Shown: piece after piece, positions 5,322 through 23,388 of the stretch | Position numbering within the stretch: the first letter of the stretch is position 1 | Layout of the letters: every line of letters starts with the position of its first letter | DNA from: a virus | DNA length: 64,000 nt | Virus record (IMG/VR): IMGVR_UViG_3300016665_000824 | Location: 32,001 to 96,000 of that record | Strand: one strand, 5' to 3' | Position numbers and translations under genes: made by a program | Notes under the pieces: model-generated | Databases searched by the model: none | What the model saw: only the letters and a program-made list of their open reading frames with translations | What the model was told of the DNA's origin: nothing

Positions 5322-5352
5322 GGTAACAAGGACTTGAGTCCTTGTTACCTTA
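5319..5352. terminator. Strong hairpin (15-bp stem, 4-nt loop) spanning the stop codons of two convergent genes
   Basis: TAAGGTAACAAGGAC-TTGA-GTCCTTGTTACCTTA; no flanking U-tract. Confidence 0.45.
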
Positions 5353-8300
5353 CTCCGCTAGTAACACCCGCTACTCGTCTCAAGACATTATTAAGCGTGT
5401 CATTAACAGCCTTCTGGACATCATTGCCCACACCCGCCGCAGAACTAATGTTGCTTTGAGTATTGATAGCGATCGGGGCATTAACCGTAATATTTCCACT
5501 TGTACCCAGAGCCGCACCCGTAGGATTGCCCTGTTGCTGAGGAACAAGATCTTTACCGCCAAGACTACCGAAAGCCTGCGCCAATGCCTCCGCTCTTTGA
5601 AGTTGTCCTTCGTCAAGCAAGGCGATCGGCTTGTCGAGTTTCTTCTGGGCTTCCTCAAATGCCTTGTCGTCGATCTTCAATGTCACGGGGTTCTCGGAGA
5701 TTTGCTTCGACACACGGTTAAATTCCGCTTCCAGTCCTGCGGTTAAATCTTTAACCTTGAGATCTGGGGCAACCAACACCTTGGAGAAGCCTTCATCGAT
5801 TTGCTGAGTTAACTTGTCGAACGAAGACGCGATCGCCTGTTCTGGCTTTGCTTCCTCCGTAGGTTTGCCACCGTACTTAGCGTTAAGCTCCTCAAACGAG
5901 TTGGCTTGAGCAGGATACTTCTTGTTAAGCTCCTCAAAGCTGCCTGCCATGCCCTTGTCGGGATATTTCTTGGCTAACTCCTCAAAGCTAGTAGCGAACG
6001 GTGCGTTATCAGGCTTTGGTTCGGGTGCAGCCGTAAATACTCCGCCCTGCTCAACCTGCCCAAGCAATGCCGAGGTGGGGTTCTTAAACGAAGCACCGCG
6101 AACATTAACAGGTTGGCTTGCCGCAGCCACAGCATTACTTACATCCGTGGTAGTCAATGCTGCTGTACCCGTATTTTGAGTTAAGCGAGCAAGCTGCTCT
6201 CGTTGTAGGCGCTCTTGCAGCGCAGGATCTCTAGTTGCGCCAATAACATCGCCGATCGCCGTATTAGTTTCGCCTTGCTGTTTATTGGCAAGAGCTTGAC
6301 GATCATTCTTGTTGACAATCTCGTTAACCTTGGCTTCGTCGGCAATGAAACCCTTTTCTTGCTGCAATCCACCCAATTCAAGAAAGTTCTTCTCCTGTCC
6401 AAGCTTGGCTTGAGCAAGTTTAAGCTTCGCCTCTTCGGACTGGGGACGTAGTTTAACCTCCAACTCGGCGGCTTTGATAGCAGCATCCTGTGAGGCAATG
6501 TCCACCTTCTTCTTGGCGATCGCGATTTCATTTTCGACCTTCTTGCGTTCAAGCAATAGGTCACGCTTCTGGATTTCCCGCTCCAAGGACTCGGCTTCAA
6601 ACTTTTGCTGTTGCTTGAGGGAATTAAGCTTAAGAACGGCAAGTTTTTCCGCAAGAATCAGCTTTTTCTCTTCGAGTTCGAGATCGGCAAAGTTGCCCTG
6701 ACCACCTGCGGCACGGATGGCAGCTTGTTGGCGATCGTAGATCTTGTTGAGAGCAGCAAACTCTGACTCGCGTAATGCCACTGTAGACTGGGCAAGTTTA
6801 TTTGCCGACTCGGATAGGCGGCTTTGATTCTCAAGCCCCTTTTCTAGTGCGGTGAATAATAGTTTTTGACGTTCAAGCTTGAGGTTTTGCTGCTCAATCG
6901 TGACCGCATACTTTTGTGATTCCAAGACTAGGCGATCGCGCACTGCGGAAACTAATCCTTCAATCGCCGCGAGTTCGGCTTCAGCGAGCTGTTTGGATAG
7001 TTCAGCAACCTTGATTAGATTAGCGTTCTTAGTTTCCTTGCTAACACCAACGCCCTTCTTCTCAAGATCGGCGATCGCCTTCTGCTTTTGTTGTTCGAGT
7101 TGCAGCTCTAAAGTGATACTGCGTTTACGTTCGGCAGTTTCTTGAAGCTTAATTTCAGATTCAAGCTTAATTCCCGACTTGCGGAGTTGAGCTATCTGAG
7201 CAAGACGCTGAGTCTCGCCAACCTTTTCGGCGGCAAGGGTCTCCTTAATCTGTGCATCCAATCCCTTAACAAAGCGCTCGGAACGGGCTTTGGCTATTTT
7301 TGCCTCAGCGTCCTTCCGTTTGTTGTCGGCATCCTCTTCTAATCGCGCTTTCTGGGCGGCGGTAGCCTTAACTAGATCAAGCTCTTTTTTGTTTGCGTCA
7401 GCAATAGAGTTTTTCGCCAAGTTTTGACGTTCGGCATCTGGCTTTGCGATTGAGGAAAGTTGATCCCTCTTTGTCTGCAACGTCCGAAGTTCAGACTCTT
7501 TCTTGGCGATCGCGTCCTGTTCCGCCTTGATCTGTGCGGTGTACTCCGAGGAATTAAAAAATGGCGCGTCTTTTACGGTGTTGAATCGCTGTAATGTCTC
7601 CGCATTCCCAGCTTTCAGACTAGACAAGGCTTTTTCCCCATCTTCAATCTGCTTCGTAATTCCCTCTAGCTGTCCCTGAGTATCCTCTGACAACTTTAAG
7701 GTGCTATCCAAGGTTCCTTTCTGGCTCTGGAGGCTATTAAGTCTTGATTGCAACACAGCAAGCTCGTCCGTTACTTTCTTAACGTCCTCGGCAGCGTTAT
7801 CTCCCGCAACACCCGTACTTATAGACTCTTGGAGAGCCTTCTTCCTTGCCTCTGCATCTTTGATCTGTTGACTGGTATCGTCGATCTTTCCTTGCAAGAC
7901 AGGAGCTTGAGCTTCCCTGACCTGCCGTATCTTTGAAGGATCTCCAGTTGCAGCAGCTAACTGCGCTTCCGCCAACTCGCGATCGCGCTTAATCTGTTGT
8001 TTCTGCTCATTAGCGTTGGTCTCCAAGATCTGCTGTCTTGCTCTTAGAGCCTTTTGATCGGCTTCAGACTGGGCTTGAATCTTCTTCTCCTCTAATTGTC
8101 CAGAGAGGGCGATCGATTCAGACTCAGAGATTCGCCCCGTGGCGAGCAAAGCTTGAATCTGGGAAAGTTGAGCGTCATAAATAGCTATGCGGCGATCCGC
8201 CTCCTTTTTGTACGCGGCAGTAATCGCTTCTTGAGCCTTTATCTGTAAATCGCGATCGGCAGAGACATTCGTAGCTACTTTTTGAAACGCTCCCGCAACT

Positions 8301-11300
8301 TCGTCTGCACGGAGAATCCCTGCATCTTGAAGGGCGTTAGCCGTTTCAAGCAACTCGCCCAACTTCGCCTTAAATAGCGCAGGATCTCCCGCAGACTTGT
8401 TTAAAGCGTCAAGGGCTGCATTATATTTTGAAGTTGCCTGCTCGATCGCATTACCAATACGAGGAAGATCAATAGCCTGAATTTGCAGGTTTACCGACTT
8501 GTAGGATTCTTGAAGTTTTCTAAGGGCTTCAAGTTCTCGATCTCTTTCTGCGTCTAAACCTTCTACAGCTTGAACCTGATTAATGATTGCCTCGATATTG
8601 TTGTTTCTTTCGGCGATCTCCTTCTTCTTATTCTCGATCTGAATATCAAAACGCGCAGCACCATCTTTGTCGCTTAGCGCTTCCGCCTTGGACTTTTCCT
8701 GCTCTAATTTAATTAAATCCTCTTGGAGTTTCTTCTGAGCAGACAGTCCTATTCCTAGATCAACCCGCCGAGAAGCTGACTGATTTAAGACGTTTTTATT
8801 ATCTTGCAATCTTATTTGGACGGCTTTCTCTTCAAGATTTCCTGCGCGATCGCCTAGACCTAACTTGTCGGAAGCGCCAAACGTTACCGTTCTTAGCCCC
8901 TCTCTTGCCGCGTCACCTGTAAGAGCAAAACCTTCTGTAACGCGAGTACCAATATTGTCTCTCTCTTTTTTAACCTTCTCCCTCAACGCGTCTTCGGAGT
9001 TGGTTGGTTTGCTTTGTAATCCCCTCAACTCTTTGAGTTTTGCGAGCTGTTGATCATACAGCTTTAAAGTGGGGTCATCTTGGAGGATGCTCTTGTCTTG
9101 GATTGAGGCAACATATTTTTCGCGTTCTGAGGTTAGGTTTGCTAGCTCAGAAGCGGCATCCTTTCCTTGCGATTTGTTTAGGATCGCAACCCTTGCGTCA
9201 CTATCTTTGAGCGCATCGTTGAGTTTGTCTACATTGGCTGTAGCTGCTTTTGTTTCCTGATCGACGTAGCCAACCAAGGTTGTTATTGCGGCGAAAGCTG
9301 CGCTTAACAATAATGTAGGACCAATTTCTGCGGCGAGGGCGGCGAAGGATTTGCTGATACCTTTGACATTCTCGGAAATAAACGAGGTAGCGCCTACAGC
9401 ACCCTTTTTGAGGTTTGAATAAAGTCCACCGACACTAACGTTCGCGTTTTGAGTGAAATCAGCAAAGCTAGACTTAGCTCGCGAGCCAAAATCTTTGACA
9501 CCAGAAAGAGCATCTTGGAAACCTGTCTTTAACCCAGCACCTAAATTTTTGAGGCTTAAATCGGGGAGAGAAATAGACTTGACTTGATTGACAAACTTAT
9601 CTATAGCGATACGAGAATTAGCCAAAGAAGCGGGAATATTTAGCTCTCTAAAGAACTTATCGAGTCCCAGTCTCGCGTTTGCAAGAGAGGTAGGGACGTT
9701 GATCTGGGAAAATGCTTTTTCAACCCCGTTGCGGAGGTTTACCAGCGAGGCAGGAATGTTGATATTTGCAAAGGCGTTCCGAATGCTAGCTTTAGTATTC
9801 TCAATTTGCGCGGGGAGATTTGCAAAGATACCAGTTTTTTGACTCGAATCCTGACTGAACCTTCCCTTAATGTCAGATATAAAACTACCAATAGAGTCGC
9901 CCAAGGACTTCAAAGAAGTTTTTGTCTTTGTGGCGATCGCTCCAATATCTTCTGCGAACTGTTTTGTGAACGGGACGGGAATTGGATTGGCAATAATCTG
10001 ACTTCGGAGCGACTTGATTCTGTCGGTAGTCTCCTGATAACTTTTAAGAGCCGCCGCACGAGCTTCGGGGGTTAACGACAGATCTGTAGAGTCTTTTTGG
10101 CTCACGATCGCCTGCTGTTTTAGTCCAGAGACCTCTCGTTTAGCGGCGACAACCTGAGTAGGATTTAGAGTCGTTGACTGAACTGGCTTGCCCCCAAGTA
10201 TTTCTCGAACACTATCGTTTAGCTTCTTGATGCGCCCAAAGGTTTCGCCAATACTGGCTCCAGCACCGCTAATTCCCGTGTTAATTGTCTTAAATACATT
10301 GGAGATTGTGCCACCAAACAGCTTGGTAACAGCGATCGCGATTAGCAATCCGCCAACTACTTTTTGAAAAGGATTGGAGTTCTCGCCAAAAGTAAAGAAC
10401 GGCAATATCGTGTCTGCAACCACCTTAATTACTGGTGCTAATACCGACCCTACCGTATCCGCAAACTTACGAATAGCTGCGGTTACATCCTGAATGATTT
10501 TTTGTAGACCTTTGTTCTTCAGGATTAACTGATCGAAGAAGACAAAACCAACAAATGTTCCAGCACCCAACAAGGCTGTTGATACGGCAAAAGACCTTGC
10601 CGCAGCTCCTGCCGCTTTTAATGAATTAGAGAAGATGCTGTTTACTTTCTCGGTATTTGTAGCGACATCGGCAAACTTGCCCAAGCTCTTGGCTGCGTCC
10701 GCAATCAACGGGCTAAACGAGCCAAATAGTTGGGACTTACCAACAATGCCTGAGAAAGCTGTTAAGGCGATCGGCGCTGCCTTCGTAAATCCTTGCAGTG
10801 CGGTTCCTAGCGCAGGAAATGCTTGAGTAAGTCCAATCAGTTTTACCCCAAAGCCACCTAGTGTTGGCAAAGCGGCAGTTATAACTCCCGCGAATGGCGA
10901 GAACGCACCGAGAACTTTGCCCAACTCTTTTTGGACTAAGCCAGCAGCACCAGGGATCTTGTTTAGATTCTCCGCCAACAACAGGAATCCAGCAGACCCT
11001 CGACCGACAACCGAACTTAAATTAGCAAAAGTGTTGACAACCCCGTTAGTACGCTTGTCAAGCAGGAAGAGAACTTCTCCCAAACCTGGTACAAGATTAA
11101 ACATCAACGAGAAGCCTTTGTTTAATGCCCCGATCGCGCCCGAAAGAACTTTTGCGCCGACGGAGATGCCGATCCAAATCCCTCCAAGAGGACCTACAAC
11201 ACCTGCAATTTGTTCAAACACATTAATAGCTGGCTGAACAACAGCAAGAGTAAGGCTCATCGCATCGGAAAAAGCCTTTACTGCGCCAGCGAGAGACTTG

Positions 11301-13780
11301 AATAGGTATTCTGGAACCTGCCCAAAGATCTGGAAGAATGGCCCCGCGAGACTTTTTAGGGTCGCAATCACGTTCTTGAATACGTCAAACAGTATTCCTG
11401 CGAGACTCCCTACTTGAGCAGCGATCGCGTCTTTATTCTTTGAGAAATACTGGTAAAACCCGTCAAGTTCCGCTACTAAAGGTGCGAGGAATTTCTCCCC
11501 AGCGAGTCTGCCGATCTCATCAACTAGCTCTTGAATATTGCTAACAATCCCACCCACGGACTGAGCAGCTAGCTTGTTTCCAGACTTAAATGCTTCTAAT
11601 CGACCTAAAAGCTCTTTGACGAAGGTTCCTTGAGACTTCCACTTAGCCACCATCTCATTGTTGAGGTTAAGCGATTTGGCAAGAGCTGAGTTTTGGTCAA
11701 TAGTTCCCGAAGTTATACTAACAACCTCTTGACGGGCTTGATATAAAGGTATGCCAAGCGTTCCGAGTGCGGCGGCGAACGAGGTTGTAATATTAGCAGC
11801 GTCATTCAAGGACGCGCCAATGTTGCTTGCCTGCCCAGCAACGATCTGAAAAACCCCGACAAGATCTTTACTGGTTACGCCGACCAGCTCTAACGAGTCT
11901 TTACGAATTTTATCGATCGCCCCTTCAACCGCAGGGCCAACCGCCTTGATCGCTTGAGTTGGATCTGATACGCGATCGCCATTAACTACGATTCTATTGG
12001 TTGCCGCTAAGCTCGCCTGAGTAGAGAGTAGTTGCTCTTGGAGCCTGATGTTTTGCCCAATCAACAGATCGAAAGGGCCGTTTTGTACAAATCCTTGGAG
12101 TGCCTGCAATCCCAATCCCAAGAAAGCAAGTCTCTGAGATACTTCAAAGATCGCGTTGGTTGCCTTGCCAGCACCTTCGCTAATTAGATTGAATACTTCT
12201 AGTGGTTCCGTCGCCCCCGCCACTGGAGCAACCACTGCGGCGGCAATATCTACAGGTTCTTGCAGCTTCGGGGCTATCTCTTGAGTCTTTTGAAACCCCT
12301 TAACGATAACATCATCAACACTATCGATGACAGTACCGACTTCGGCAAGGATTGTTGATCTCAGTCCATCAACAAAATTCTTACCTGCGATCGCGCCAGT
12401 ATCTTTTAAAAGCGAACTAAATGTTCCGCCAAAAAACTCGTCAATCTTGGTTGCAAGTTTTTGCAGTGAGCCATCCCCGCTTCCGATAGAATCAATCGCC
12501 GCGCCCAACCCTCCGTCAATAGCATCGACAGCTTTTAGGGCTAAATTCCTGAGAGGCGCAAGGATGCTAGTATCTTCTACGCTAAACAAGCTATTGAGAG
12601 CCTGTCCAACGCCTCCCTTTTGAGTCTCTATTAAAGGGCGGAGGATGGCAAAAGCGGATCTTAAATCCTCTGGAATTGCTTTTTCTAGTCCATTAAATAA
12701 CTGTCCAGACAACGCATTTCCAAAATCTTGCAACTCATTAGAGGCAACAATCGACCCCAAATTTGCCACCCCGATCTTGTTGGCAATCAGTTTTGCTAGT
12801 GGTGGTAGTGGCAACTTATCTACAAGCTGAGGGATTCGCCCCGCTAGGCGGTTGATCAGCTCAGATACAGAGCCGCCTAACTGTTCGTCAAGAATTTTAA
12901 ATTGATCGGTCGCCTCAGATCTGCTGCCGACGATTGCCCTGCCGACCGATCCTCCTAAAGCGCTAGATAAGCGCCCTACAACTCTTTGTCCGTCCTCAAC
13001 GTTTGGCGCGATTGCGTTAACGGCAAAAGCTTTAGCAGCACCCGATACCGACCCACCAGCCAACTGCTTCGACACTTCCGACAGCAATCCAGTTTTTGCC
13101 GCAGTCCGAAATGAGTTGGCGACAATTGAGGTTAAATCCGCCCCGAAAGCTTGGTTAACAATACCTTTTAAAGCGTCGGGGAGTCCTCCCCCAACAACGC
13201 CCGAAATGAGTGAGTCGGCGATCGCGTTATCTAGCGTTCCAGTAAAAGCCTCAACTCCCACTCCAAGCTTGCGCTGAATTTCTTGATTTAGCTTTGAAGC
13301 CCTAACATTTGCTTCTAACGCTTTACCGAAACTGTTTGCAGAATCGCTAAGTATCTGCGTAATTCTCTTGCCGTTATCCGAAAATATTGCAGACTGAGCT
13401 TGCTCTGCCGACTGCTTAGATAAGAATCCTCCTCCGACATCTTTTCCTGCAGAGGTAATCCCCTTGATTACCTTTGAGAGCGGAGCTAGTTTTGAAACTG
13501 CACTGTCGGCGACATTCGAGATCTGTTCTAAAAATATTTTGCCCGACTGCGTATCTAGTACATCTCGAACCGACTGAATTGCGTCTCTCAGCCCTCCAAA
13601 CGTGCCAATCGCGGTTGCCCCTACCGTGCTGATCGTTCCGCCAAGGGCTTGTACAGATCCCTTTGTTACGTCCGCAACAACACCAACACTTTTTAGACCA
13701 GCAGCTATCTCCGAAACTTGTTTGCTTGCTTGATCTTTCGCCTGTATTAAGATCTCAACAATATTGGTTTGCGGAGCCAT
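5345..13780 (-). CDS. Giant virion protein, tape-measure-like (tail length tape measure or ejection/internal virion protein)
   Basis: Uninterrupted 2811-aa ORF; Gly/Ala/Ser-rich hydrophobic N-terminal third, long E/K/Q/A/L-rich coiled-coil centre, internal tandem repeats, position between head and tail-fiber genes. Confidence 0.6.
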   Translation of the reverse strand: MAPQTNIVEILIQAKDQASKQVSEIAAGLKSVGVVADVTKGSVQALGGTISTVGATAIGTFGGLRDAIQSVRDVLDTQSGKIFLEQISNVADSAVSKLAPLSKVIKGITSAGKDVGGGFLSKQSAEQAQSAIFSDNGKRITQILSDSANSFGKALEANVRASKLNQEIQRKLGVGVEAFTGTLDNAIADSLISGVVGGGLPDALKGIVNQAFGADLTSIVANSFRTAAKTGLLSEVSKQLAGGSVSGAAKAFAVNAIAPNVEDGQRVVGRLSSALGGSVGRAIVGSRSEATDQFKILDEQLGGSVSELINRLAGRIPQLVDKLPLPPLAKLIANKIGVANLGSIVASNELQDFGNALSGQLFNGLEKAIPEDLRSAFAILRPLIETQKGGVGQALNSLFSVEDTSILAPLRNLALKAVDAIDGGLGAAIDSIGSGDGSLQKLATKIDEFFGGTFSSLLKDTGAIAGKNFVDGLRSTILAEVGTVIDSVDDVIVKGFQKTQEIAPKLQEPVDIAAAVVAPVAGATEPLEVFNLISEGAGKATNAIFEVSQRLAFLGLGLQALQGFVQNGPFDLLIGQNIRLQEQLLSTQASLAATNRIVVNGDRVSDPTQAIKAVGPAVEGAIDKIRKDSLELVGVTSKDLVGVFQIVAGQASNIGASLNDAANITTSFAAALGTLGIPLYQARQEVVSITSGTIDQNSALAKSLNLNNEMVAKWKSQGTFVKELLGRLEAFKSGNKLAAQSVGGIVSNIQELVDEIGRLAGEKFLAPLVAELDGFYQYFSKNKDAIAAQVGSLAGILFDVFKNVIATLKSLAGPFFQIFGQVPEYLFKSLAGAVKAFSDAMSLTLAVVQPAINVFEQIAGVVGPLGGIWIGISVGAKVLSGAIGALNKGFSLMFNLVPGLGEVLFLLDKRTNGVVNTFANLSSVVGRGSAGFLLLAENLNKIPGAAGLVQKELGKVLGAFSPFAGVITAALPTLGGFGVKLIGLTQAFPALGTALQGFTKAAPIALTAFSGIVGKSQLFGSFSPLIADAAKSLGKFADVATNTEKVNSIFSNSLKAAGAAARSFAVSTALLGAGTFVGFVFFDQLILKNKGLQKIIQDVTAAIRKFADTVGSVLAPVIKVVADTILPFFTFGENSNPFQKVVGGLLIAIAVTKLFGGTISNVFKTINTGISGAGASIGETFGRIKKLNDSVREILGGKPVQSTTLNPTQVVAAKREVSGLKQQAIVSQKDSTDLSLTPEARAAALKSYQETTDRIKSLRSQIIANPIPVPFTKQFAEDIGAIATKTKTSLKSLGDSIGSFISDIKGRFSQDSSQKTGIFANLPAQIENTKASIRNAFANINIPASLVNLRNGVEKAFSQINVPTSLANARLGLDKFFRELNIPASLANSRIAIDKFVNQVKSISLPDLSLKNLGAGLKTGFQDALSGVKDFGSRAKSSFADFTQNANVSVGGLYSNLKKGAVGATSFISENVKGISKSFAALAAEIGPTLLLSAAFAAITTLVGYVDQETKAATANVDKLNDALKDSDARVAILNKSQGKDAASELANLTSEREKYVASIQDKSILQDDPTLKLYDQQLAKLKELRGLQSKPTNSEDALREKVKKERDNIGTRVTEGFALTGDAAREGLRTVTFGASDKLGLGDRAGNLEEKAVQIRLQDNKNVLNQSASRRVDLGIGLSAQKKLQEDLIKLEQEKSKAEALSDKDGAARFDIQIENKKKEIAERNNNIEAIINQVQAVEGLDAERDRELEALRKLQESYKSVNLQIQAIDLPRIGNAIEQATSKYNAALDALNKSAGDPALFKAKLGELLETANALQDAGILRADEVAGAFQKVATNVSADRDLQIKAQEAITAAYKKEADRRIAIYDAQLSQIQALLATGRISESESIALSGQLEEKKIQAQSEADQKALRARQQILETNANEQKQQIKRDRELAEAQLAAATGDPSKIRQVREAQAPVLQGKIDDTSQQIKDAEARKKALQESISTGVAGDNAAEDVKKVTDELAVLQSRLNSLQSQKGTLDSTLKLSEDTQGQLEGITKQIEDGEKALSSLKAGNAETLQRFNTVKDAPFFNSSEYTAQIKAEQDAIAKKESELRTLQTKRDQLSSIAKPDAERQNLAKNSIADANKKELDLVKATAAQKARLEEDADNKRKDAEAKIAKARSERFVKGLDAQIKETLAAEKVGETQRLAQIAQLRKSGIKLESEIKLQETAERKRSITLELQLEQQKQKAIADLEKKGVGVSKETKNANLIKVAELSKQLAEAELAAIEGLVSAVRDRLVLESQKYAVTIEQQNLKLERQKLLFTALEKGLENQSRLSESANKLAQSTVALRESEFAALNKIYDRQQAAIRAAGGQGNFADLELEEKKLILAEKLAVLKLNSLKQQQKFEAESLEREIQKRDLLLERKKVENEIAIAKKKVDIASQDAAIKAAELEVKLRPQSEEAKLKLAQAKLGQEKNFLELGGLQQEKGFIADEAKVNEIVNKNDRQALANKQQGETNTAIGDVIGATRDPALQERLQREQLARLTQNTGTAALTTTDVSNAVAAASQPVNVRGASFKNPTSALLGQVEQGGVFTAAPEPKPDNAPFATSFEELAKKYPDKGMAGSFEELNKKYPAQANSFEELNAKYGGKPTEEAKPEQAIASSFDKLTQQIDEGFSKVLVAPDLKVKDLTAGLEAEFNRVSKQISENPVTLKIDDKAFEEAQKKLDKPIALLDEGQLQRAEALAQAFGSLGGKDLVPQQQGNPTGAALGTSGNITVNAPIAINTQSNISSAAGVGNDVQKAVNDTLNNVLRRVAGVTSGVR
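5872..6000 (-). repeat. Three imperfect tandem ~42-48-bp repeats near the 3' end of the giant ORF
   Basis: Encodes SFEELAKKYP / SFEELNKKYP / SFEELNAKYG. Confidence 0.65.
9581..9820 (-). repeat. Four tandem 60-bp (20-aa) repeats inside the giant ORF
   Basis: Encodes NIPASLVNLRNGVEKAFSQI / NVPTSLANARLGLDKFFREL / NIPASLANSRIAIDKFVNQV / NLPAQIENTKASIRNAFANI. Confidence 0.7.
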
Positions 13781-13823: not shown

Positions 13824-14171
13824 TTACTTTTGCTTTAGCTTTTCTGGCTCATATCGCGACACCAAGGCGATAAGCAGATCTTGAGACGGCTTTATTTCTG
13901 AGTCAGCCCATTCTTTGAAATACTTGTGATATCTAGAACAGCTAGCCTCGGCTTTAGCGGTTTGCTCTAGGGCTAGCTGCTTCGTGGGGTCGCTATCAGG
14001 GAGGGTCTTTAACCCCTCCTCTTTTCCTAGCAGACTATACGAAGTCGAGCAATACCTGTAATCTTCGGCGATCGCTGTCGCTGCCGACTTGGACTGAAAA
14101 GACCTTACAGCGCCAACTGAAAGCAACGCTAGCACGACTACCGCCCCTAATGTGATTGGATTAAGCTTCAT
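13824..14171 (-). CDS. Small protein with N-terminal signal/anchor sequence
   Basis: Likely start at MKLNPITLGAVVVLALLSVGAVRS (ATG 14171) rather than track start 14288, which overlaps upstream gene; two Cys. Confidence 0.4.
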   Translation of the reverse strand: MKLNPITLGAVVVLALLSVGAVRSFQSKSAATAIAEDYRYCSTSYSLLGKEEGLKTLPDSDPTKQLALEQTAKAEASCSRYHKYFKEWADSEIKPSQDLLIALVSRYEPEKLKQK

Positions 14172-14220
14172 TGATTTTTGTGATTTCTTCACGAAGATTA
14201 TAGCGCGATCGCCTCGCAAT

Positions 14221-16428
14221 TTATCCCTTACCGTTACTGGGTTTTGAGGTTGGCTTATAGACATCATAGAGAGAGCCAATCTTCCCATTCTTCTTAGAGG
14301 CGTATAAAATCATAGGATCTTGACCCTCCATAGGGGCGAAGCCAGCCTTTTCGTAAATACTCTTACGCTTACTGCCAGCCCCATCTTTGTCATAAGCCCC
14401 AGCCGTAAGAATAGAGTTGTCGGGCATAGCCTCAATATGCTTGGCAAACGAAGCCTTTGTCATGCGAATAATTTGTTTTGCTCCAGAAGCCCCAAGGTTG
14501 GCGGACTCCTCCTTGTTATTGGATTCGTTTATGGCGAAAGAAACCTCGTAGACACTTCCTCCAGAAGCTTCTTTTTTGTACACAGTCGTAAAGGTGTACA
14601 AGGCTGGTCCAACAGAAGCTACAGTATAAACCCCACCATTCTTTCTATCCCTGTAAGTGAAGCTGTTCGATTCTTTGTCTACGTCAATAAGATCCCGACC
14701 CTTAATAGACTGAGTTTTTCTTGCCAAGGCGAGCTTGGTCATTCCGATAAGACCTTTTGCTTTGTCTTTAAGGGCTGGGCTTAAATCAGATCTATCCAAA
14801 GCCCGATCCGCCACTTTCCCCAAGGCTAAACTCTGCTTGTAGGTCATAATCAGTGCAACATCTGAAATCTTGTAATCTTTTGTCGCTTGAATATTGCCAA
14901 TACCGACGACTCCAGCTACCACTGAACCTACGCTACCTGCGACGATCGCTGCCTTGCGAGCGCCTTTGTTAGAAAGTAGTCCGATAGCCTTGTCTACTGG
15001 TGTCTCCTTTTTTTGTAGGGGCGGCTGAGGTATAGAGAATTCCGTTTTTGGTTGTTGTGACTCGCTTGGATTACCCCCTTTTGTTGACTTGCCTCGGTTT
15101 GCAGCGATCGCCGCCGCACCACCAACTAAGGCAGCAGCACCTAAACCAGTACCAACATTTCGGGCTAAATTATTCTCGCTTTTTTTCTCGCCGATCTTTT
15201 GACAGGCGTTTCCACGCTGGACATAGCCTTCCTTGCATTTGAGCGTTCTACCCTTGTCGTAGCGCAAAGATACCGACATACGCCCCTCAAGATAAGACGA
15301 ATCATTCTGTAGATCGGCATCAGTCCGCCTTGTAGTTGCACTTTGATAGATGTTGCTAAATAGGTAAAGAACTTCGATATCCTCGTCATCCTCAACCGAG
15401 TCTCCCCTCTTCTCATTTATCTGGGATATCTTCTCGTTTGTTTTAGCCTCTACGTTTTCTCTAAAGTCCTTGAGTCCACCCCTCTTTGTTGCGAGGGTGA
15501 GAGCAGTGCCAAGAAGAATGGTGTCTCGCTCAGCTCTTCTTAGAACCTTCTGAAAAGGAGATAAGGTAGATTCATTCTTACCACCCGAAATCGACTTGGA
15601 CACATATTCTCCCGCAATGCGTTGAATTTCAGGATCTTTAGACCACTCGGAAGCTACGGATGAGCCATATTTCAAGGCTGCGCTACGAGCTTTTGGATTG
15701 GTCAGCACCTCTTTTGCGATAACCATAGAGGCTTTTTTCTTTGCTTCAACTAAGTTTGTTTCGTTACTAAATTCAGGAGCGACAAAAGTTCCGACAGCGC
15801 TGGCTACTTCTGGCTTTTCCGCAAGAATACTCAAAATTGCGGTAGCTTTATCTCTGTAAGCAGGATTGTTTAAATCCTTGATGCGCCTTTTAATCAATAC
15901 TTGAGATAAATTGTCTCCCTCACTTTTGATTTCACCTTTCTTCTCTTTTGACAAAAGGTTTGCCACTACAGAGACAGTCTTGTTCACCGCCACCGAAGCC
16001 GCCTTTTTCGTTGCGCCCAATATAATCTGATTCTTTTTCTGAGAGATCGCAGCCCCAGTTACCGCAACAACGGTACTGGCTCCAGCCGCCAAATACCTCT
16101 TCGCCAGAGGAAGTCCTTTCTCCCCTTTTTTGGAGGCAGTAGAACTCGAAAGAAGGGCAACAGGGGCGGGATCTACGGCTCTGTTTTCTTGCGGAGATCT
16201 TCTCGATGCGATCGCCGCCACACCGCCGACTAAAGCCGCAGCCCCTAGCCCTGCGCTAATATTTCGAGCTAAATCACCCCCAGCCTTCTTCTCGCCAATC
16301 TTCTGGCAAGCAGCCCCGCGCTGTACATAACCTTGCTTACACTTAATCTTCTTCCCCGCATCTTGACGTAGAGCGACAGACACCTGCCCCTCAAGATAAG
16401 CTAAGTCACTGGCTAAATCTCTCGTCAT
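14221..16428 (-). CDS. Cys-motif/hydrophobic-helix protein with duplicated anchor module and GNAT-like C-terminus
   Basis: 735 aa; two copies of CK[QE]GYVQRGxAC followed by GLGAAALVGG-type hydrophobic segment; C-terminal GASGAK...IYEKAGF resembles GNAT acetyltransferase motifs. Confidence 0.6.
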   Translation of the reverse strand: MTRDLASDLAYLEGQVSVALRQDAGKKIKCKQGYVQRGAACQKIGEKKAGGDLARNISAGLGAAALVGGVAAIASRRSPQENRAVDPAPVALLSSSTASKKGEKGLPLAKRYLAAGASTVVAVTGAAISQKKNQIILGATKKAASVAVNKTVSVVANLLSKEKKGEIKSEGDNLSQVLIKRRIKDLNNPAYRDKATAILSILAEKPEVASAVGTFVAPEFSNETNLVEAKKKASMVIAKEVLTNPKARSAALKYGSSVASEWSKDPEIQRIAGEYVSKSISGGKNESTLSPFQKVLRRAERDTILLGTALTLATKRGGLKDFRENVEAKTNEKISQINEKRGDSVEDDEDIEVLYLFSNIYQSATTRRTDADLQNDSSYLEGRMSVSLRYDKGRTLKCKEGYVQRGNACQKIGEKKSENNLARNVGTGLGAAALVGGAAAIAANRGKSTKGGNPSESQQPKTEFSIPQPPLQKKETPVDKAIGLLSNKGARKAAIVAGSVGSVVAGVVGIGNIQATKDYKISDVALIMTYKQSLALGKVADRALDRSDLSPALKDKAKGLIGMTKLALARKTQSIKGRDLIDVDKESNSFTYRDRKNGGVYTVASVGPALYTFTTVYKKEASGGSVYEVSFAINESNNKEESANLGASGAKQIIRMTKASFAKHIEAMPDNSILTAGAYDKDGAGSKRKSIYEKAGFAPMEGQDPMILYASKKNGKIGSLYDVYKPTSKPSNGKG

Positions 16429-16763
16429 TTCTTGCTCCGCTTTTTAATCATCTTGCTAATAGCTTCAGCTCCATTAGCCACTTTAGACTCAACCTTGCCC
16501 GTAGCTCGACCCGTGTTAAAGATTGCCTTACCAGTATTAAAATCCTCTTTCAATCCTGTTTTACCTTTATCGGCAAGTTTGGCGATCGCCACAGCAGTCA
16601 GTCCCGCGATCACGCCACGACCAACTGCGCCAGCAACACTCTTAATCGCTGTTTTAAGTTTGCCTTTACCACAAGTAGCGCCTTGAGGGATGCAGTAGGT
16701 TTTACCATCTTCTCCTTGGCAGGGTTTGCCGCGATCGCACGTTGTGTCTAGTCTAATCTTCAT
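16425..16763 (-). CDS. Small Cys-knot/hydrophobic-helix protein
   Basis: 112 aa; CDRGKPCQGEDGKTYCIPQGATCG then Gly/Ala-rich hydrophobic helix; 4-nt overlap with neighbours. Confidence 0.55.
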   Translation of the reverse strand: MKIRLDTTCDRGKPCQGEDGKTYCIPQGATCGKGKLKTAIKSVAGAVGRGVIAGLTAVAIAKLADKGKTGLKEDFNTGKAIFNTGRATGKVESKVANGAEAISKMIKKRSKK

Positions 16764-18468
16764 ACTTATTTTTCACCGCTTTTTCCACCGCAAGTCTGGC
16801 TGCAATACCAATCGCGATCTTAACTATGGGATGAGAACCTTCTGCGTAAGAAGGAGAGGCTTTTTGTAACGCTGCAAATGAAGCTTTCGTGCCTACATAT
16901 TGCGTTGCCGCGTCAGAAAACATCAATAGCGCAGTTTTTTCTGTCTGACCTAACGAGGAGTCGGACAACGTTCTCTCTGTCGCATCACGAGCAACTTTAC
17001 CTCCAAAGGCTCCAACCAAACTAGAACCAATCTCATATCCAAGCATCTTGAGTTTGTCTTTTTCTTGCCTCCCAATCGATTTTAAGGTGACAAAATCGCC
17101 CACTTGCTGGACAAAGTTCTTTTTCGCTTGCGGAGTTTGAATCATGGCTTGGAGGCTTCTGCCTGCGCTTGAATTGCGGAGTTTTCCAATAGAGCGGGTT
17201 AAGCGATCTCCTAGTCCGCCCCTTCCTTTTACTGTGGATAGAATAGCCTCCCCGACCTGCATCCCGTCCCTAGCCTTCTGCCTTAAGTCGTGTTGCTTCC
17301 CCTTAGGGGCATTAGCGATTAGGGCTAGCGTAGTCGCCGAGGCTGCTGCTACCCCTATTGTTGCCAAGGTTCTTGAGGAAATAAAAGGTTTTCTCTTTTC
17401 TGACCCGCAGGTTGCGTTTTTTGGGATACAGTAAGTCTGACCGTCCTCGCCCTTGCACGGCTTTCCGCGATCGCAGGTAGAATCTATTCTATTTTGAATA
17501 GATCTTGTTTTTTTGTAGATGTATCCGCTAGTCCTCCCCGTCTTAGATCTCAAAAAAGAATCTGTTTCTGTACTGATTTTGCGTGCAAACCCCTGATAAT
17601 CCTGAAAACGATCGGTCACAGTTCTGGGTTGCTTGTCCTGCCATTTTTCTGTTAATTGCCTGTTTAGATTGGCGTGAACGTCAGCCAACTCTTTAGCTAG
17701 TGAGCTACTAGGAGAAAATGCCCCCTCTCTTTTAGCCTGTAATACAGAGGTGGTTTCCGCTCCAGTCGCACGAATTTCTTTGATGTTACTAAAAAACGCT
17801 CCTACTTTTAAGTCGGCGGGACTAAAGGCTGACGTATCTCCAACCCCAGCAATATCTGGGTGATTGTGAGTCATCAGTACTGTGTTTTTTGCGGCTTTTT
17901 GATTATACGCATCGGTTATTCCAAGAGAGACCGAGCCTATCTGCCCTTTTCTGATCAGTGAAGGCTTGCCATCCACGTCAAAAGCAAAAAGAGTCTCGAA
18001 ATCATTATGCTGGATCTTTCTTTCTGCCGCGTAAACACTAATTGCAAGTTCTTTGGGGAGGTGGCTATATGCAGGAGCATCTCTTGCGGGAATGCCATTC
18101 TTGGCTACGTCTTCTCGTTCTTTCGCAAACTCCTTATAGGTTTCAACATCATCAAGCTTCTCTCTTATAACCTTATTGGCAATCATGGCTCCCACCCCCA
18201 GCGCTAAAAACTTAGCCGCCGCCTGAGGATCTTTAGAAGCTAATGCGGCTCCTGCCGCTAGTACAGTCAGTTTTGCAAGAGTTCCAGTTCCATCGCCCTT
18301 ACTAGCTGTGGATAGGGAACCAGTTCTAGATATCGGATGACAGGCGGAGCCTCTTTGGACATAACCTTGCCGACAATTGATTTTTTTGTACTCATCCCGC
18401 CTCTCCACATATCGCGATCGCGACAGTAGATACCCCATTTCGTACTCGTTCTTGTTATCTAGTCTCAC
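16753..18468 (-). CDS. Cys-motif/hydrophobic-helix protein with JAB/MPN-like (JAMM) signature
   Basis: 571 aa; N-terminal CRQGYVQRGSAC plus hydrophobic segment; central THNHP...SPAD (aa 200-219) resembles RadC/JAB HxH...SxxD; C-terminal CDRGKPCKGEDGQTYCIPKNATCG plus hydrophobic segment. Confidence 0.55.
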   Translation of the reverse strand: MRLDNKNEYEMGYLLSRSRYVERRDEYKKINCRQGYVQRGSACHPISRTGSLSTASKGDGTGTLAKLTVLAAGAALASKDPQAAAKFLALGVGAMIANKVIREKLDDVETYKEFAKEREDVAKNGIPARDAPAYSHLPKELAISVYAAERKIQHNDFETLFAFDVDGKPSLIRKGQIGSVSLGITDAYNQKAAKNTVLMTHNHPDIAGVGDTSAFSPADLKVGAFFSNIKEIRATGAETTSVLQAKREGAFSPSSSLAKELADVHANLNRQLTEKWQDKQPRTVTDRFQDYQGFARKISTETDSFLRSKTGRTSGYIYKKTRSIQNRIDSTCDRGKPCKGEDGQTYCIPKNATCGSEKRKPFISSRTLATIGVAAASATTLALIANAPKGKQHDLRQKARDGMQVGEAILSTVKGRGGLGDRLTRSIGKLRNSSAGRSLQAMIQTPQAKKNFVQQVGDFVTLKSIGRQEKDKLKMLGYEIGSSLVGAFGGKVARDATERTLSDSSLGQTEKTALLMFSDAATQYVGTKASFAALQKASPSYAEGSHPIVKIAIGIAARLAVEKAVKNKYED

Positions 18469-21083
18469 TGGCTTTGCTTCCTCGCTTTACGGCGTTGAGT
18501 TAATGTTGCATTGAGTTTTTTGGCGATCGCGTCAGCAGCATTTACCGACAGGTAATCCACTGCGCTGCCGTTAGTTCCTGAGAAGCTATCGGGGTTTTTG
18601 CCCTTGAATGGAGTTCGACTCCAGAGATCGCCGTCCGACCACAGATCGGTCTTTGGAGTTTTTAGCAGATCTGTATCTACTTTTTTCTTATCTACCTTCT
18701 CTCCCCCAAAACCCAGCTCAGGAGTTCCCAAAGTAACAAGGTGAATTTGTTTAGCAATATAAGTCCCAGCAACATTTCCTTGCGAACCTGTTTTTTGCAT
18801 TGACTCCAAGATGTCCAAAGCCCTTTTTGCTGTTTCTCCACCTTGCTTTAGCCCAATAACAGAAATAGCTGGGTATTCAGTTGAGCTTCCCTCGTATGAG
18901 CTGTTTCCGATAGCGTAAAGTTCCGCAGCCAACTTTACAGCTTCAGGGTCTCGTCCCGCTTTGAGGGTCTTACTCATCACGGCTTCGTAGCTTCTTGCCA
19001 TAGTGTCAATAACACCCATAACCCTGCCCCTAGACTGAGGCGGGAGGGTTCGATCAAAAGAAACCACGTCGCTTTGATCGTAGAAGTCTTTCTCTGCTTG
19101 AGACTGAAGCTTTGATCCGTTACTTTTAATTGATTTGCCCAGAACATCGCTAGGAGTTTCTCCATCTCCTATTGCGATAATGACGCTGGGATTTATTGGG
19201 GTAGGCAAAGTCGTTCGTCCACTTGCTACAATCTCTTGAGCCTCAAGAGCAGACTTCGCTATATTGTTGTTGTATTTAACCCTCGCAGCCACAGCAGCAG
19301 TCACCGTTACTTGACCAAGTACGGCTACAGTATTAATCGCTGCTGCTGTGGGATTGTCTTGATATTTATCCTTGATCGCAGAAACCAGATTCCACGTCTT
19401 TCCTAGCGTTGGGTTTACCGCAGTGATCGCCGCCGCTATTTCTTTTGCCCCCTTGTCGCTAGACTTGCTTCCCGCAACAGAATTAGAGAAAAATCCAAAC
19501 GTCTCGCGGATTTTATCTCTGACCGTGCTATCGGTTAAGTAGTCCTCAATCTCATGCCCCTTGACCGAGCTGACAAACTGCGAAAACCTCTTAGGCAGGA
19601 TTGAGAAAGGATCGTTTTTGGAGGTAATAGTGCGGTTGTTAATGTTCGCCCAGTTCTTGTCGTCTTGAGTTGTGCCACCCGTCAAACCGAAGGATGCACC
19701 GCCAAGTCTGGCGATATTGAGGCGCTTCAGAACTTCTCCACCATCAAGCCCCCTAGCAGGCTTGATCCGACTCAAAATTTCGGCAGCTTCATCAACAACG
19801 TTGCCCCCAGAACCGTGACTAACTACGTTCAAAGGCTTGTCACGATACTTAGAGCCATAAGCATACAATTTAGAAGCCAGATCCACCGCAGCTTCGTTTC
19901 TGCCACCGACAATATTGCTTAGATATTTGCCAAAACTTTCTTTAGCTACATACCCCAGATACAAGGGATTGTAGTTCCCGTTTTTATCCTTTGGGAGAAT
20001 ATCGGTTGGAGGAACATTAAACTCCGAATTGTTGAAGGGGATGACCTGCTGGGTCTTGTTAAACCACTGTTCCCGTTTTGAAGTGTCAAGCGGAGTTTTT
20101 AAATATTCAGCGAGCTTATCACCAGAAGAGCCAAGGTTGGAAAATCCTCCTACAGCAAAAGTTAGTTGAGGTTTGGAGGTTGGCTCGACAGGAGTAGTTT
20201 GTGCTCTTTGGTACGCCATTAGCGCCGATTCAGGCAAGCCTTCTTTGTAGCGATCGCGAGCGGTCATCATTACCGATGAGGGAATGCCCAGCAGTACGCT
20301 TGCCGCTAATATGCCTGCCGCAGGGCGATTGTCTCCAAAAAACTTGCTAATCTTTTCGATATCTTTCCATGCGCCAGCAACGGGTTGGGGTAGCAAACTC
20401 TTAAGAGCTTTCTTGCTAGACTCTGCGCGATTCAAGCCTTCACGAACAATCTTCTGGCGATCGGGATTGGCTTTTTGCAGGCGAATTGATTCTCGCAATT
20501 GAGCCTGACTCATATACGAGTAGCGATACACGCCTCGTTTGCGAGCTTCTTCCTTTAATTCCCGAATATTCTTGTTATCAAGATCGTCCTCAACTGGGGC
20601 AACGCCAACAAATTTCGCTTTTTGAACTTGGTTTACCGCATCATTCAGATCGGAAATCTCTTGTCTATTTAAAGCTTCAGGAACGTCAATACGGCAGGTG
20701 TCCGTCTTTGCAATACAAGCGCCTTTGCAGGATAGTCCAACCTTACAGTTCTTGGGCTTAGAAATTTTATCGGTACGTTGACCGATATTGTTTGCATAAG
20801 CAAGTAAGTACTGATCTGCGTCAGTATCTACTGCATCAGTGCGACCATCCTGTACCTGCTTATACTCAATGCGATCTCCTAATTCCAGCCGAATCAGCTT
20901 TTGATCCTTGTCATCATCACGAAACAGACAAGTGATAAGCCCGTCATTACCGATATTGATATTAAGGATCTGATCGATACTCCCGTAGGCGCGAGAAATA
21001 ATGCGAGTTAATAGCCTCGCAATCGTTCTTCTTGCGGCGAGAGGATCTGTGGTTTGAATTGGTGGTGGTGCGATCGCGTACAT
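18465..21083 (-). CDS. Large virion/effector-like protein with possible alpha/beta-hydrolase-like region
   Basis: 872 aa; CKVGLSCKGACIAKTDTC motif; VVSHGSGG (aa 421-428), NDPF (aa 490-493), KGHE (aa 508-511) in the order expected of a Ser-Asp-His hydrolase, not canonical GxSxG. Confidence 0.5.
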   Translation of the reverse strand: MYAIAPPPIQTTDPLAARRTIARLLTRIISRAYGSIDQILNINIGNDGLITCLFRDDDKDQKLIRLELGDRIEYKQVQDGRTDAVDTDADQYLLAYANNIGQRTDKISKPKNCKVGLSCKGACIAKTDTCRIDVPEALNRQEISDLNDAVNQVQKAKFVGVAPVEDDLDNKNIRELKEEARKRGVYRYSYMSQAQLRESIRLQKANPDRQKIVREGLNRAESSKKALKSLLPQPVAGAWKDIEKISKFFGDNRPAAGILAASVLLGIPSSVMMTARDRYKEGLPESALMAYQRAQTTPVEPTSKPQLTFAVGGFSNLGSSGDKLAEYLKTPLDTSKREQWFNKTQQVIPFNNSEFNVPPTDILPKDKNGNYNPLYLGYVAKESFGKYLSNIVGGRNEAAVDLASKLYAYGSKYRDKPLNVVSHGSGGNVVDEAAEILSRIKPARGLDGGEVLKRLNIARLGGASFGLTGGTTQDDKNWANINNRTITSKNDPFSILPKRFSQFVSSVKGHEIEDYLTDSTVRDKIRETFGFFSNSVAGSKSSDKGAKEIAAAITAVNPTLGKTWNLVSAIKDKYQDNPTAAAINTVAVLGQVTVTAAVAARVKYNNNIAKSALEAQEIVASGRTTLPTPINPSVIIAIGDGETPSDVLGKSIKSNGSKLQSQAEKDFYDQSDVVSFDRTLPPQSRGRVMGVIDTMARSYEAVMSKTLKAGRDPEAVKLAAELYAIGNSSYEGSSTEYPAISVIGLKQGGETAKRALDILESMQKTGSQGNVAGTYIAKQIHLVTLGTPELGFGGEKVDKKKVDTDLLKTPKTDLWSDGDLWSRTPFKGKNPDSFSGTNGSAVDYLSVNAADAIAKKLNATLTQRRKARKQSQ

Positions 21084-21085
21084 GA

Positions 21086-22492
21086 CTATTTTTTAGCTTG
21101 CTTCTGGTTTTCTTCTTCCGCCTTGTTTATGGCGTGGGCTGCGAGAGCTAGAGATCCAGCAGTTGCCGCAACGTTCGCTCCGATCGCGCCAGCAACAGAT
21201 GCTCCGCGACCATGACCACGCGATCGTAAAGCTCTGTAAGTGCCGCTACCGATCGGCCCAGCCAGCGCCTGTACCGCCCCCTTTCCAAAAGCTTTGGCAG
21301 TCTCCCCAGCACAATTCTTTTCTTGAGGAATACAGATCTTTCCGCAAGGCTTAGTACCTGAACCGCACTTTGCGTCTTCACGAAGCTGCTCGACGAATGA
21401 GTCGATGCGCTCATCTAAGGATTCGTATCGACGACTTGTTTTATTCCACACTCTATTTGTAGTCATATTCGCTCTTCTAATTCGTTTTGGCATCTCCCTC
21501 CGAGTTGTTTTAACCTCAGATGCTTTTACGTCTACCGTATTATTCTTGTCAACAAAAGTCTGCATAAAACTTCTAGCGAAATTGTCTACGGCGTTAAGAG
21601 TTGATCGGGTGGTAGATCCCGCCTTTTTTGCCGCCTCGTTTAGGTCGATAGTTTTGTCGGCAAGATTCTTCCTCGCGACGCGATCGCGTTCTAGCCTTTC
21701 TTTTGTTTTTCGATACAACTTACCCGCCGCCGCACCTGCGGAACCAGCAGCTCTTGTTAATAGTGGCTTCTGAGGTTCGGCGATCGCACTACCACTACTC
21801 TTGCCCGATTCACTCGCAGCAATAGTTAATCCACCAGTAGATACCTTGGAAGCAGGAGGGTTGTATGGCAGTCGAGTTGGAGGTGGGGGTGTAGGAGTTT
21901 CAGGTTTATTGACGGGGACTAGTGCTCCACCGATTTCTGGCTTGGGCTTGGGTGATGGAAGGCGATCGGGCGGGGCTAGCCTCCTGCTTTCTATCTCGCC
22001 TTGCCGAGCTGCTTCTCGCTCAAGATCTTTCTTAGCCTTATATCGAAAATACTCCTCTTCTGCCGCAGCTTCCTCTGCTCTCCACCGCGCCCTCCGAGTT
22101 TCGCTATCCTTTTCGCCAGCCTTGTTTGCGCCCTTCTCGATAATGGGGCGAAGACCTACGGTGATGGCTTTATTCGCAATTACACCTGCGCCGAGTGATG
22201 CGGCAGTTCCACCGACCTTGATCGCCGCTTTCTTAGCAAACTCACCAACCTTATTGGGAGGTGACTGAGGAAGTATAGAAGCAGGCTCCGTCACAGGGAT
22301 AGGCTTCTGTTCTTCTGGCTTCTTCCTTAGCGCGATCGCTGCTGCCCCCAACCCACCCAAGGCAAGTGCAGCGCCAACACCCGCAGCCCCTTTCTTTGCT
22401 GCACTGGCATTGCGGAAGTATGAATAAGCCTTACGTCCATTTTGCGCTGGGACTTTAACTTCTACCTGTGCGTCCTGTCTTTCAGTACTCAT
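21086..22492 (-). CDS. Low-complexity basic/Pro-rich protein with Cys-knot motif and Gly/Ala-rich hydrophobic segments
   Basis: 468 aa; CGSGTKPCGKICIPQEKNCAG near C-terminus; several GAAGVGAALALGG-type segments. Confidence 0.5.
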   Translation of the reverse strand: MSTERQDAQVEVKVPAQNGRKAYSYFRNASAAKKGAAGVGAALALGGLGAAAIALRKKPEEQKPIPVTEPASILPQSPPNKVGEFAKKAAIKVGGTAASLGAGVIANKAITVGLRPIIEKGANKAGEKDSETRRARWRAEEAAAEEEYFRYKAKKDLEREAARQGEIESRRLAPPDRLPSPKPKPEIGGALVPVNKPETPTPPPPTRLPYNPPASKVSTGGLTIAASESGKSSGSAIAEPQKPLLTRAAGSAGAAAGKLYRKTKERLERDRVARKNLADKTIDLNEAAKKAGSTTRSTLNAVDNFARSFMQTFVDKNNTVDVKASEVKTTRREMPKRIRRANMTTNRVWNKTSRRYESLDERIDSFVEQLREDAKCGSGTKPCGKICIPQEKNCAGETAKAFGKGAVQALAGPIGSGTYRALRSRGHGRGASVAGAIGANVAATAGSLALAAHAINKAEEENQKQAKK

Positions 22493-22968: not shown

Positions 22969-23388
22969 CTAGAAGGCAATGAATGGTGGCACGGCAGGGA
23001 TACTGTCACCCATAAAACCGCCCGTTAGAACCAATTCCTTAAGCATTAGAAATTGCTGCCCATAGGTGGTTCGAGATAGATACACATCGGAGAATCTGCC
23101 ATTACCGTTTGCGGGGGTGGAGGTTCTCCGATTAGACATAGACTCACCAGTGTCGATCGCCTTAGCATTTGACACAGTGACAGTACCTTCCTCGGTATTG
23201 AGCGCCAAATAGTGAGCAGTCAGCAACATTACCGCCATTTCCGCATTGTCACCCCACTCTTCAATCGAGCAAAACCGCGAATAGAAATTCAGCCAGTTCT
23301 GGATAAAGATCAGCGACTCCCCAACAAAGTCAGAGAATGCTGCCTCGGAAGTGAAAGTATCTGCGGAAACGACGGGGTATGTTGCCAT
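22969..23388 (-). CDS. Putative head-tail adaptor/connector protein
   Basis: 139-aa ORF after capsid gene; AEMAVMLLTAHYLAL segment reminiscent of head-tail adaptor families (from memory). Confidence 0.35.
   Translation of the reverse strand: MATYPVVSADTFTSEAAFSDFVGESLIFIQNWLNFYSRFCSIEEWGDNAEMAVMLLTAHYLALNTEEGTVTVSNAKAIDTGESMSNRRTSTPANGNGRFSDVYLSRTTYGQQFLMLKELVLTGGFMGDSIPAVPPFIAF

Follow-up and report, generated by a model that had tools for sequence, protein, structure and literature searches.

The 64,000-nucleotide (nt) stretch of viral DNA analyzed here, termed the window (positions 32,001 to 96,000 of IMG/VR record IMGVR_UViG_3300016665_000824), carries on its minus strand, at 14221..16428, an open reading frame (ORF) for a protein of 735 amino acids (aa). 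An uncatalogued family of phage domains, not represented in Pfam, NCBIfam, PHROGs or the PDB, has its founding example in the C-terminal end of this protein. We tentatively read residues 553-729, with confidence just short of even, as a strongly diverged member or offshoot of the acyl-CoA N-acyltransferase (GNAT/NAT) fold that serves as one cargo module of a virion protein, namely an injected acyl-transferring effector. As the usual acetyl-CoA-binding signature is absent, the domain is probably a divergent injected enzyme module and not a standard acetyltransferase or toxin. An acyl-transferase activity of some kind is a possibility that we hold with some reserve.

The protein is modular: ahead of each globular module there is a Cys module, then a hydrophobic helix rich in Gly and Ala and a linker of some 60 residues. 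The stretches aa 4-57 and aa 372-425 share 65% identity (E 8e-27), and the only four cysteines of the protein (C30, C41, C398 and C409) form one pair per copy of this Cys module, each copy being followed by an uncharged Gly/Ala-rich 20-mer. The duplicated membrane-anchor module proposed in the preliminary description, which was made from the sequence alone, was thereby recovered as a duplication, with membrane insertion as its putative role. An identical copy of the protein is present on metagenomic contigs of 134 kb and 85 kb, and only four full-length homologues were found in the word-indexed database. The homologue P0004 (L008 6815-9013) retains both Cys-hydrophobic units and the C-terminal domain, while its middle region is unrelated to that encoded at 15394-16146 of the window. 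This suggests module swapping between the retained delimiters. The start codon of the gene, an ATG, shares nucleotides with the stop of the 112-aa ORF ahead of it (ATGA), and a GGAG is found some 10 nt before this ATG. The modules of the protein are arranged as follows:

16294..16407, minus strand: Cys module, copy 1 (aa 8-45, DLAYLEG...KCKQGYVQRGAACQKIG; C30 and C41), invariant in the four homologues
16204..16263, minus strand: hydrophobic Gly/Ala-rich segment 1 (aa 56-75, NISAGLGAAALVGGVAAIAS), a putative membrane-insertion helix
15394..16146, minus strand: middle region (aa 95-345), no recognizable family in family scans
15190..15315, minus strand: Cys module, copy 2 (aa 372-413; C398 and C409)
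15100..15159, minus strand: hydrophobic segment 2 (aa 424-443, NVGTGLGAAALVGGAAAIAA)
14899..14949, minus strand: hydrophobic segment 3 (aa 494-510, AIVAGSVGSVVAGVVGI), 62 aa before the C-terminal domain, a spacing typical of the family
14242..14772, minus strand: C-terminal GNAT-like domain (aa 553-729), the sole copy in the window
14461..14493, minus strand: GASGAKQIIRM (aa 646-656), N-terminus of a long helix equivalent to GNAT alpha3
14338..14385, minus strand: family signature DGAGSKRKSIYEKAGF (aa 682-697), beta5-alpha4 loop and helix alpha4, corresponding to GNAT motif B

A family profile built from the C-terminal 175 aa was searched against 1.84 billion cluster representatives and retrieved 149 of them at E<=1e-3, 104 at E<=1e-10 and eight at E<=1e-30. 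The family comprises more than 100 clusters at 50% identity. Among the 94 representatives with full-length domain copies, D682 and Y692 are conserved in 100%, R688, F631 and G562 in 99%, K565 in 98%, and G685 and G696 in 96%, and position 634 is D or N in 99%. N588 and S605 are further invariant polar residues, and F697 of the family signature is invariant or nearly so. The conserved block has the consensus L-P-D-N...D-G-x-G-x-K-R-x-x-I-Y-x-K-x-G-F. The preliminary description had based its GNAT signature on two strings, GASGAKQIIRM and SIYEKAGF, placed about 45 aa apart; both are present in the ORF where it located them, 44 aa apart. IYEKAGF corresponds exactly to nt 14338-14358, with the preceding Ser at 14359-14361, and IYEKAGFA to 14335-14358. 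Since the most conserved block of the family contains SIYEKAGF, this string belongs to the family core motif. GASGAK is located in a loop that varies in length and sequence and is conserved only among the closest cyanophage homologues; motif A is thus not a feature of the family.

Members of the family were found on 16 IMG/VR viral contigs. Searches with tblastn of 50,697 phage records, using the 735-aa protein, its domain and two distant members, returned nothing or only noise at E>=2. Scans of 185,579 reference genomes with patterns from two sub-alignments found none with the patterns tried, and no more than three proteins were retrieved when the 40-sequence profile was used in the word-indexed search for homologues. 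Large members of the family have the domain joined to kinase-like (ABC1, APH, Pkinase, RIO1, Kdo), LRAT, NlpC/P60, SNF2 and other helicase, DnaJ, PPPDE and M90 peptidase, and cutinase/lipase-like domains. They thus carry several effector domains each, as polyvalent proteins do; the 735-aa protein itself has, apart from the GNAT-like domain, a single middle region without assignment. On the IMG/VR contig L013 (5928-9374) the GNAT-like domain is part of an 1148-aa protein with a C-terminal kinase-like domain, and on L005 (6804-7646) it forms a solo protein of 280 aa. Both genes are located between portal and MuF, with DnaJ, DUF5872 and a second kinase-like gene downstream.

The fold of the domain was predicted with AlphaFold2 from four sequences (predicted local distance difference test, pLDDT, 75) and from 40 sequences (pLDDT 88.5, predicted template modeling score 0.82), and the order of elements was the same in both models. 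In domain numbering, to which 552 is added to obtain the residue number in the 735-aa protein, a helix (10-23) is followed by antiparallel strands at 26-32, 37-42, 48-54, 57-69 and 72-81, and these by a short helix, a long helix (94-115), a strand (120-125), a helix (133-142) and a beta-hairpin (155-166). The beta4-alpha3-beta5-alpha4-beta6 core of GNATs is present in the predicted fold, and model and alignment indicate that the family keeps this core together with a motif-B-like helix, G-x-K-R-x-x-I-Y-x-K-x-G-F. Motif B itself, of the type N-x-x-A-x-x-Y-x-x-x-G-F, is represented in the 735-aa protein by G-S-K-R-K-S-I-Y-E-K-A-G-F, the Asn being replaced in the family by an invariant Gly within the D-G-x-G-x-K-R loop. 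The structural comparison placed ODC antizyme (7.6), NatD (7.5), AAC(2')-Ia (7.4), Elp3 (7.3), AcrVA5 (6.7) and TacT2 (6.2) on its list, which includes many Naa-, RimI- and RimJ-type enzymes, and the GNAT match spans the C-terminal core, beta4-alpha3-beta5-alpha4-beta6/7. With Foldseek, GNATs were top-ranked for both models but not significant (best E 4.5e-3 and 1.3e-2, TM 0.2-0.37). Judged from these models, the nearest known fold is clearly GNAT/NAT, at a strength in the grey zone only.

Profile comparison with hhalign gave a probability of only 1.5% against a narrow RimI alignment, the sequences of which are 83-100% identical. Against a second RimI-like alignment of 14 diverse sequences, built from phage records, the score was 30.4 (P 4e-4, probability 34.5%), compared with 12.0 +/- 2.1 for column-shuffled profiles and 10.9 for the reversed profile. 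Residues S686-M700 were paired with A109-A123 of RimI, Y692 with Y115 and G685 with N108. For RimI, Tyr115 has been proposed to donate the proton and Glu103 to accept it (PMC3347575). The alignment thus places Y692 at the position of the proposed donor. D682 precedes Y692 by 10 residues, similar to the spacing between Glu103 and Tyr115 (12 residues), which makes D682 a plausible candidate for the general base.

The setting of the gene is that of a virion gene block, as had been described before. Family scans of the window ORFs identified phage genes, which shows that the window is phage DNA; portal, DUF2213, cement, major capsid and DUF4054 genes are located upstream of the 735-aa ORF, and a 2811-aa tape-measure-like ORF is located downstream. 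Units of a Cys module and a hydrophobic segment recur in at least six ORFs, those of 468, 872, 571 (twice), 112, 735 (twice) and 860 aa. The Cys module takes a 4-Cys (e.g. C-x5-C-x3-C-x6-C) or a 2-Cys form (C-x10-C) and is followed by an uncharged Gly/Ala-rich segment, before each globular domain. An uncharged hydrophobic 17-mer precedes 71 of the 103 domain copies in the family at a distance of at most 140 aa (median 63 aa), against 25% for random positions in the same proteins, and at least two Cys immediately precede this segment in 60 of the 71. No Pfam family matched the unit, which looks like a general delimiter or anchor. The corresponding genes of the window are:

41553-43208: portal (PF06381), from the family scan
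between 24529 and 27827: DUF2213 protein, cement protein and major capsid protein (PF09950), from the family scan
22969-23388: DUF4054 gene, from the family scan
33812-36394, minus strand: 860-aa ORF with Cys-hydrophobic unit
21086-22492, minus strand: 468-aa ORF with Cys-hydrophobic unit
18465-21083, minus strand: 872-aa ORF with Cys-hydrophobic unit, homologous to three separate stretches of gp048 of Aphanizomenon phage vB_AphaS-CL131 (best E 7e-46)
16753-18468, minus strand: 571-aa ORF with two Cys-hydrophobic units, carrying T-H-N-H-P-D-I-A-G-V-G-D-T-S-A-F-S-P-A-D at aa ~195-220
16425-16763, minus strand: 112-aa ORF with Cys-hydrophobic unit
14221-16428, minus strand: 735-aa ORF with two Cys-hydrophobic units
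13824-14288, minus strand: 154-aa longest ORF, overlapping the 3' end of the 735-aa gene
5345-13780, minus strand: 2811-aa ORF in tape-measure position (counterparts: 2940 aa in the related contig L001; tape measure of CL131, 2131 aa)

The same unit is present in gp044, gp045, gp047 and gp048 of CL131 (L004 31277-40141). In the 1811-aa gp048 such units are strung together, with an alpha/beta-hydrolase-like domain (GHSAGG) after each of them. All products of CL131 ORF044-049 were detected by liquid chromatography-tandem mass spectrometry in CsCl-purified virions, ORF048 with 105 peptides and 54.6% coverage (PMC6293099 Table S5). From these detections and the shared modules and homology we infer that the window block encodes virion proteins, and by analogy with CL131 the 735-aa protein itself would be packaged. 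The location among virion genes recurs in the family, given the position between portal and MuF on L005 and L013; for delivery with the DNA, the CL131 detections would be indirect support.

Several observations weigh against a catalytic GNAT-type cargo module. Pfam gave no GNAT-clan match up to E=10 for the 735-aa protein, its four close homologues, 40 family members or 31 distant members, so that the proposed search against the GNAT clan returned a negative answer; the scans of the relatives yielded only scattered chance matches. Nothing relevant was found in PHROGs and NCBIfam for the 735-aa protein, nor in these databases and Pfam for its neighbors, and the PHROGs scan of the 40 members gave one chance match. 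A PDB sequence search with the protein (phmmer) and an hmmsearch with two profiles also retrieved no GNAT. The string SIYEKAGF is not evidence on its own, as a loose motif-B pattern has two occurrences in the six-frame translation (approximately 128,000 residues). Throughout the 40- and 94-member alignments, Q/R-x-x-G-x-G/A is missing from the beta4-alpha3 loop, which is long and differs between members. At the motif A position the 735-aa protein has N-L-G-A-S-G-A-K, an imperfect fit, and no position there passes the conservation thresholds; the variable GASGAK was therefore rejected as motif A, which leaves the motif B half of the originally described signature. The N-terminal half of the model is a helix and a five-stranded meander, with no helices between the first strands, in place of the beta1-alpha1-alpha2-beta2-4 arrangement. 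Shuffling the profile in 8-column blocks gave hhalign scores of 26.4 +/- 2.8 (maximum 36), close to the real 30.4, and the signal therefore comes almost wholly from a 15-column motif and not from collinear similarity: it is real, and it is restricted to the motif-B segment. Furthermore, packaging was demonstrated only for the proteins of the related phage CL131. On the reading favored here, the family has lost the classical beta4-alpha3 pyrophosphate loop, gained the invariant D-G-x-G-x-K-R loop and differs in its N-terminal half.

These points leave two serious rivals. The first is a NAT-like fold without enzymatic function, used as in ODC antizyme as a binding or assembly module that might dock the protein to the tape measure or tail lumen or sequester a host protein. 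We regard this as unlikely, since the invariant residues D682, R688, Y692, K565, N588, S605 and D/N634 are of the kind usually seen where catalysis or ligand binding takes place, the invariant Tyr is paired with a catalytic Tyr of RimI, and the family co-occurs with enzymatic effector domains. The second, to which we give a little less weight, is a structural domain of the tail or ejection apparatus that is unrelated to GNATs and resembles them in its alpha/beta sandwich and its Y-x-K-x-G-F motif by convergence or prediction bias. The uniformly grey-zone scores, the confinement of the profile signal to 15 columns, the position among structural genes directly upstream of the tape-measure-like ORF and the abundance of the neighboring proteins in CL131 virions would all be in line with such a domain.

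The conservation pattern also bears on the choice of donor. As conservation peaks in the new basic, glycine-rich loop at the alpha4 N-terminus while the classical loop is variable, D-G-x-G-x-K-R might be a relocated phosphate site in a NAT-fold enzyme that uses a non-classical donor, either aminoacyl-tRNA, as in Fem and L/F-transferases, or acyl-ACP, and acts on the envelope from a membrane anchor. The hydrophobic anchors upstream of the domain and the envelope-active partners (LRAT/NlpC-P60, cutinase/lipase-like, the alpha/beta-hydrolase repeats of the 872-aa neighbor and of CL131 gp048) agree with this proposal. It is nonetheless improbable, more so than the two rivals above, because no enzyme of this type ranks high among the structural neighbors (FemX appears only at a Foldseek E of 0.59) and partners of cytoplasmic type (kinase, SNF2, DnaJ) are equally frequent. 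The toxin-antitoxin analogy (TacT, AtaT, KacT, acetylating aminoacyl-tRNA) raised in the preliminary description was rejected on context and is highly improbable: the domain is the C-terminus of an anchored 735-aa protein in a virion block and not a small stand-alone GNAT beside an antitoxin, family scans found no antitoxin-type domains in the neighbors, and TacT2 is not a preferred structural neighbor.

If the domain is an injected acyl-transferring effector, the 735-aa protein would be packaged in the virion adjoining the tape-measure-like giant protein and would exit with the DNA at infection. Its hydrophobic helices would then insert into the host membrane, and soon after the start of infection the C-terminal domain would acylate a host target, with acetyl-CoA or another acyl donor. 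A more far-reaching version, which we consider unlikely in its entirety, is that the family represents a separate, new line of catalytic NAT folds. Its phosphate-binding element would no longer be the beta4-alpha3 loop but the invariant D-G-x-G-x-K-R loop at the start of alpha4, and the domain would act as a membrane-anchored injected effector of uncultivated phages. The unit of Cys module, hydrophobic segment and ~60-residue linker would in addition serve as a general tag, by which enzymes of diverse kinds are loaded into the virion and, on ejection, fixed in the host membrane.

The window also carries replication genes of DnaG type and DnaB type. The closest cultured relatives of its portal are those of Synechococcus phage S-CBS4, Aphanizomenon phage CL131 and Planktothrix phage PaV-LD (28-31% identity), which indicates a cyanophage of this loose group. 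The head genes are followed by ORFs of 468, 872, 571, 112, 735 and ~115 aa and then by the 2811-aa ORF, and the synteny of this block is kept on three further metagenomic contigs. The 2811-aa ORF matched nothing in Pfam or NCBIfam; hydrophobic stretches rich in Gly and Ala are numerous in it, and long regions resemble coiled coils. A weak match to TMP_2 (E 0.0047) was seen for the 112-aa ORF. The homologue of the 154-aa ORF in the related 140-kb contig L001 begins at MKLN; the true start in the window is therefore probably near nt 14171 (~115 aa), without overlap with the 735-aa gene, the apparent overlap being an artefact of the longest-ORF call. The ~115-aa product is small, with an N-terminal hydrophobic segment and two conserved Cys. 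In the 872-aa ORF, which has no Pfam match, there are apparently two alpha/beta-hydrolase-like repeats (SHGSGG, GLKQGG), each preceded by a hydrophobic segment. The string at aa ~195-220 of the 571-aa ORF resembles the H-x-H...S-x-x-D metalloprotease motif of JAB/RadC, for which Pfam and PDB sequence searches gave no confirmation; RadC domains are known in polyvalent proteins. A TnpB/OrfB_IS605 (Cas12f-like) gene is inserted among the head-completion genes of L001 (2350-3576), and the window has no ORF of comparable size at this position.

GNAT domains in injected phage proteins are already known, and the kind of protein is therefore not new. What is new within this kind are this family, its atypical motif set, the Cys-hydrophobic delimiters and the occurrence in a tail-proximal block of a cyanophage. 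If the reading of an injected effector is correct, a sizeable domain family joins the enzymes that are carried in the phage particle and delivered at the first moment of infection, and the polyvalent-protein strategy extends to cyanophages of bloom-forming filamentous cyanobacteria, where it was thought to be scarce. A GNAT-like scaffold without the canonical CoA loop and with a new invariant loop could reveal another mode of cofactor binding or another acyl donor. Furthermore, the repeated Cys-hydrophobic delimiter, present in proteins verified in CL131 virions, provides a sequence handle for injected cargo in unannotated viral sequence.

Compared with canonical GNATs (RimI, NatD/Naa40, AAC(2')-Ia), the family lacks a match to GNAT sequence models and the conserved Q/R-x-x-G-x-G/A loop, and differs in the Asn to Gly exchange in motif B, the N-terminal helix with five-stranded meander and the long beta4-alpha3 loop. 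ODC antizyme, a non-catalytic NAT-like fold, shares 6% identity with the domain. It lacks counterparts of the invariant D, R, Y and K residues and acts as a regulator in eukaryotes, outside any phage or membrane-anchor setting. The phage anti-CRISPR AcrVA5, a canonical GNAT that depends on acetyl-CoA, is produced after entry, is neither anchored nor virion-associated and has no specific sequence similarity to the window domain. Polyvalent proteins of phages and conjugative elements share the biological setting. Two GNAT families are listed among their effector domains, both RimI-like and recognizable by sequence, and a paucity of such proteins was noted in cyanobacteria (Iyer et al. 2017, PMC5512222). 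They share with the window family the strung effector domains, the genes near portal, MuF and virion genes and the predicted entry into the host with the DNA, whereas the window family matches no Pfam model, LPD families included. In CL131, gp044-gp048 occupy the same block position, with a DUF4054-type head gene on one side and the gene for the tape measure on the other, and have the same Cys-module and hydrophobic delimiters. In contrast to the window, CL131 has no copy of the GNAT-like domain (nothing in the tblastn search of the phage records with the 735-aa protein), and its cargo consists of alpha/beta-hydrolase-like repeats fused in one 1811-aa protein.

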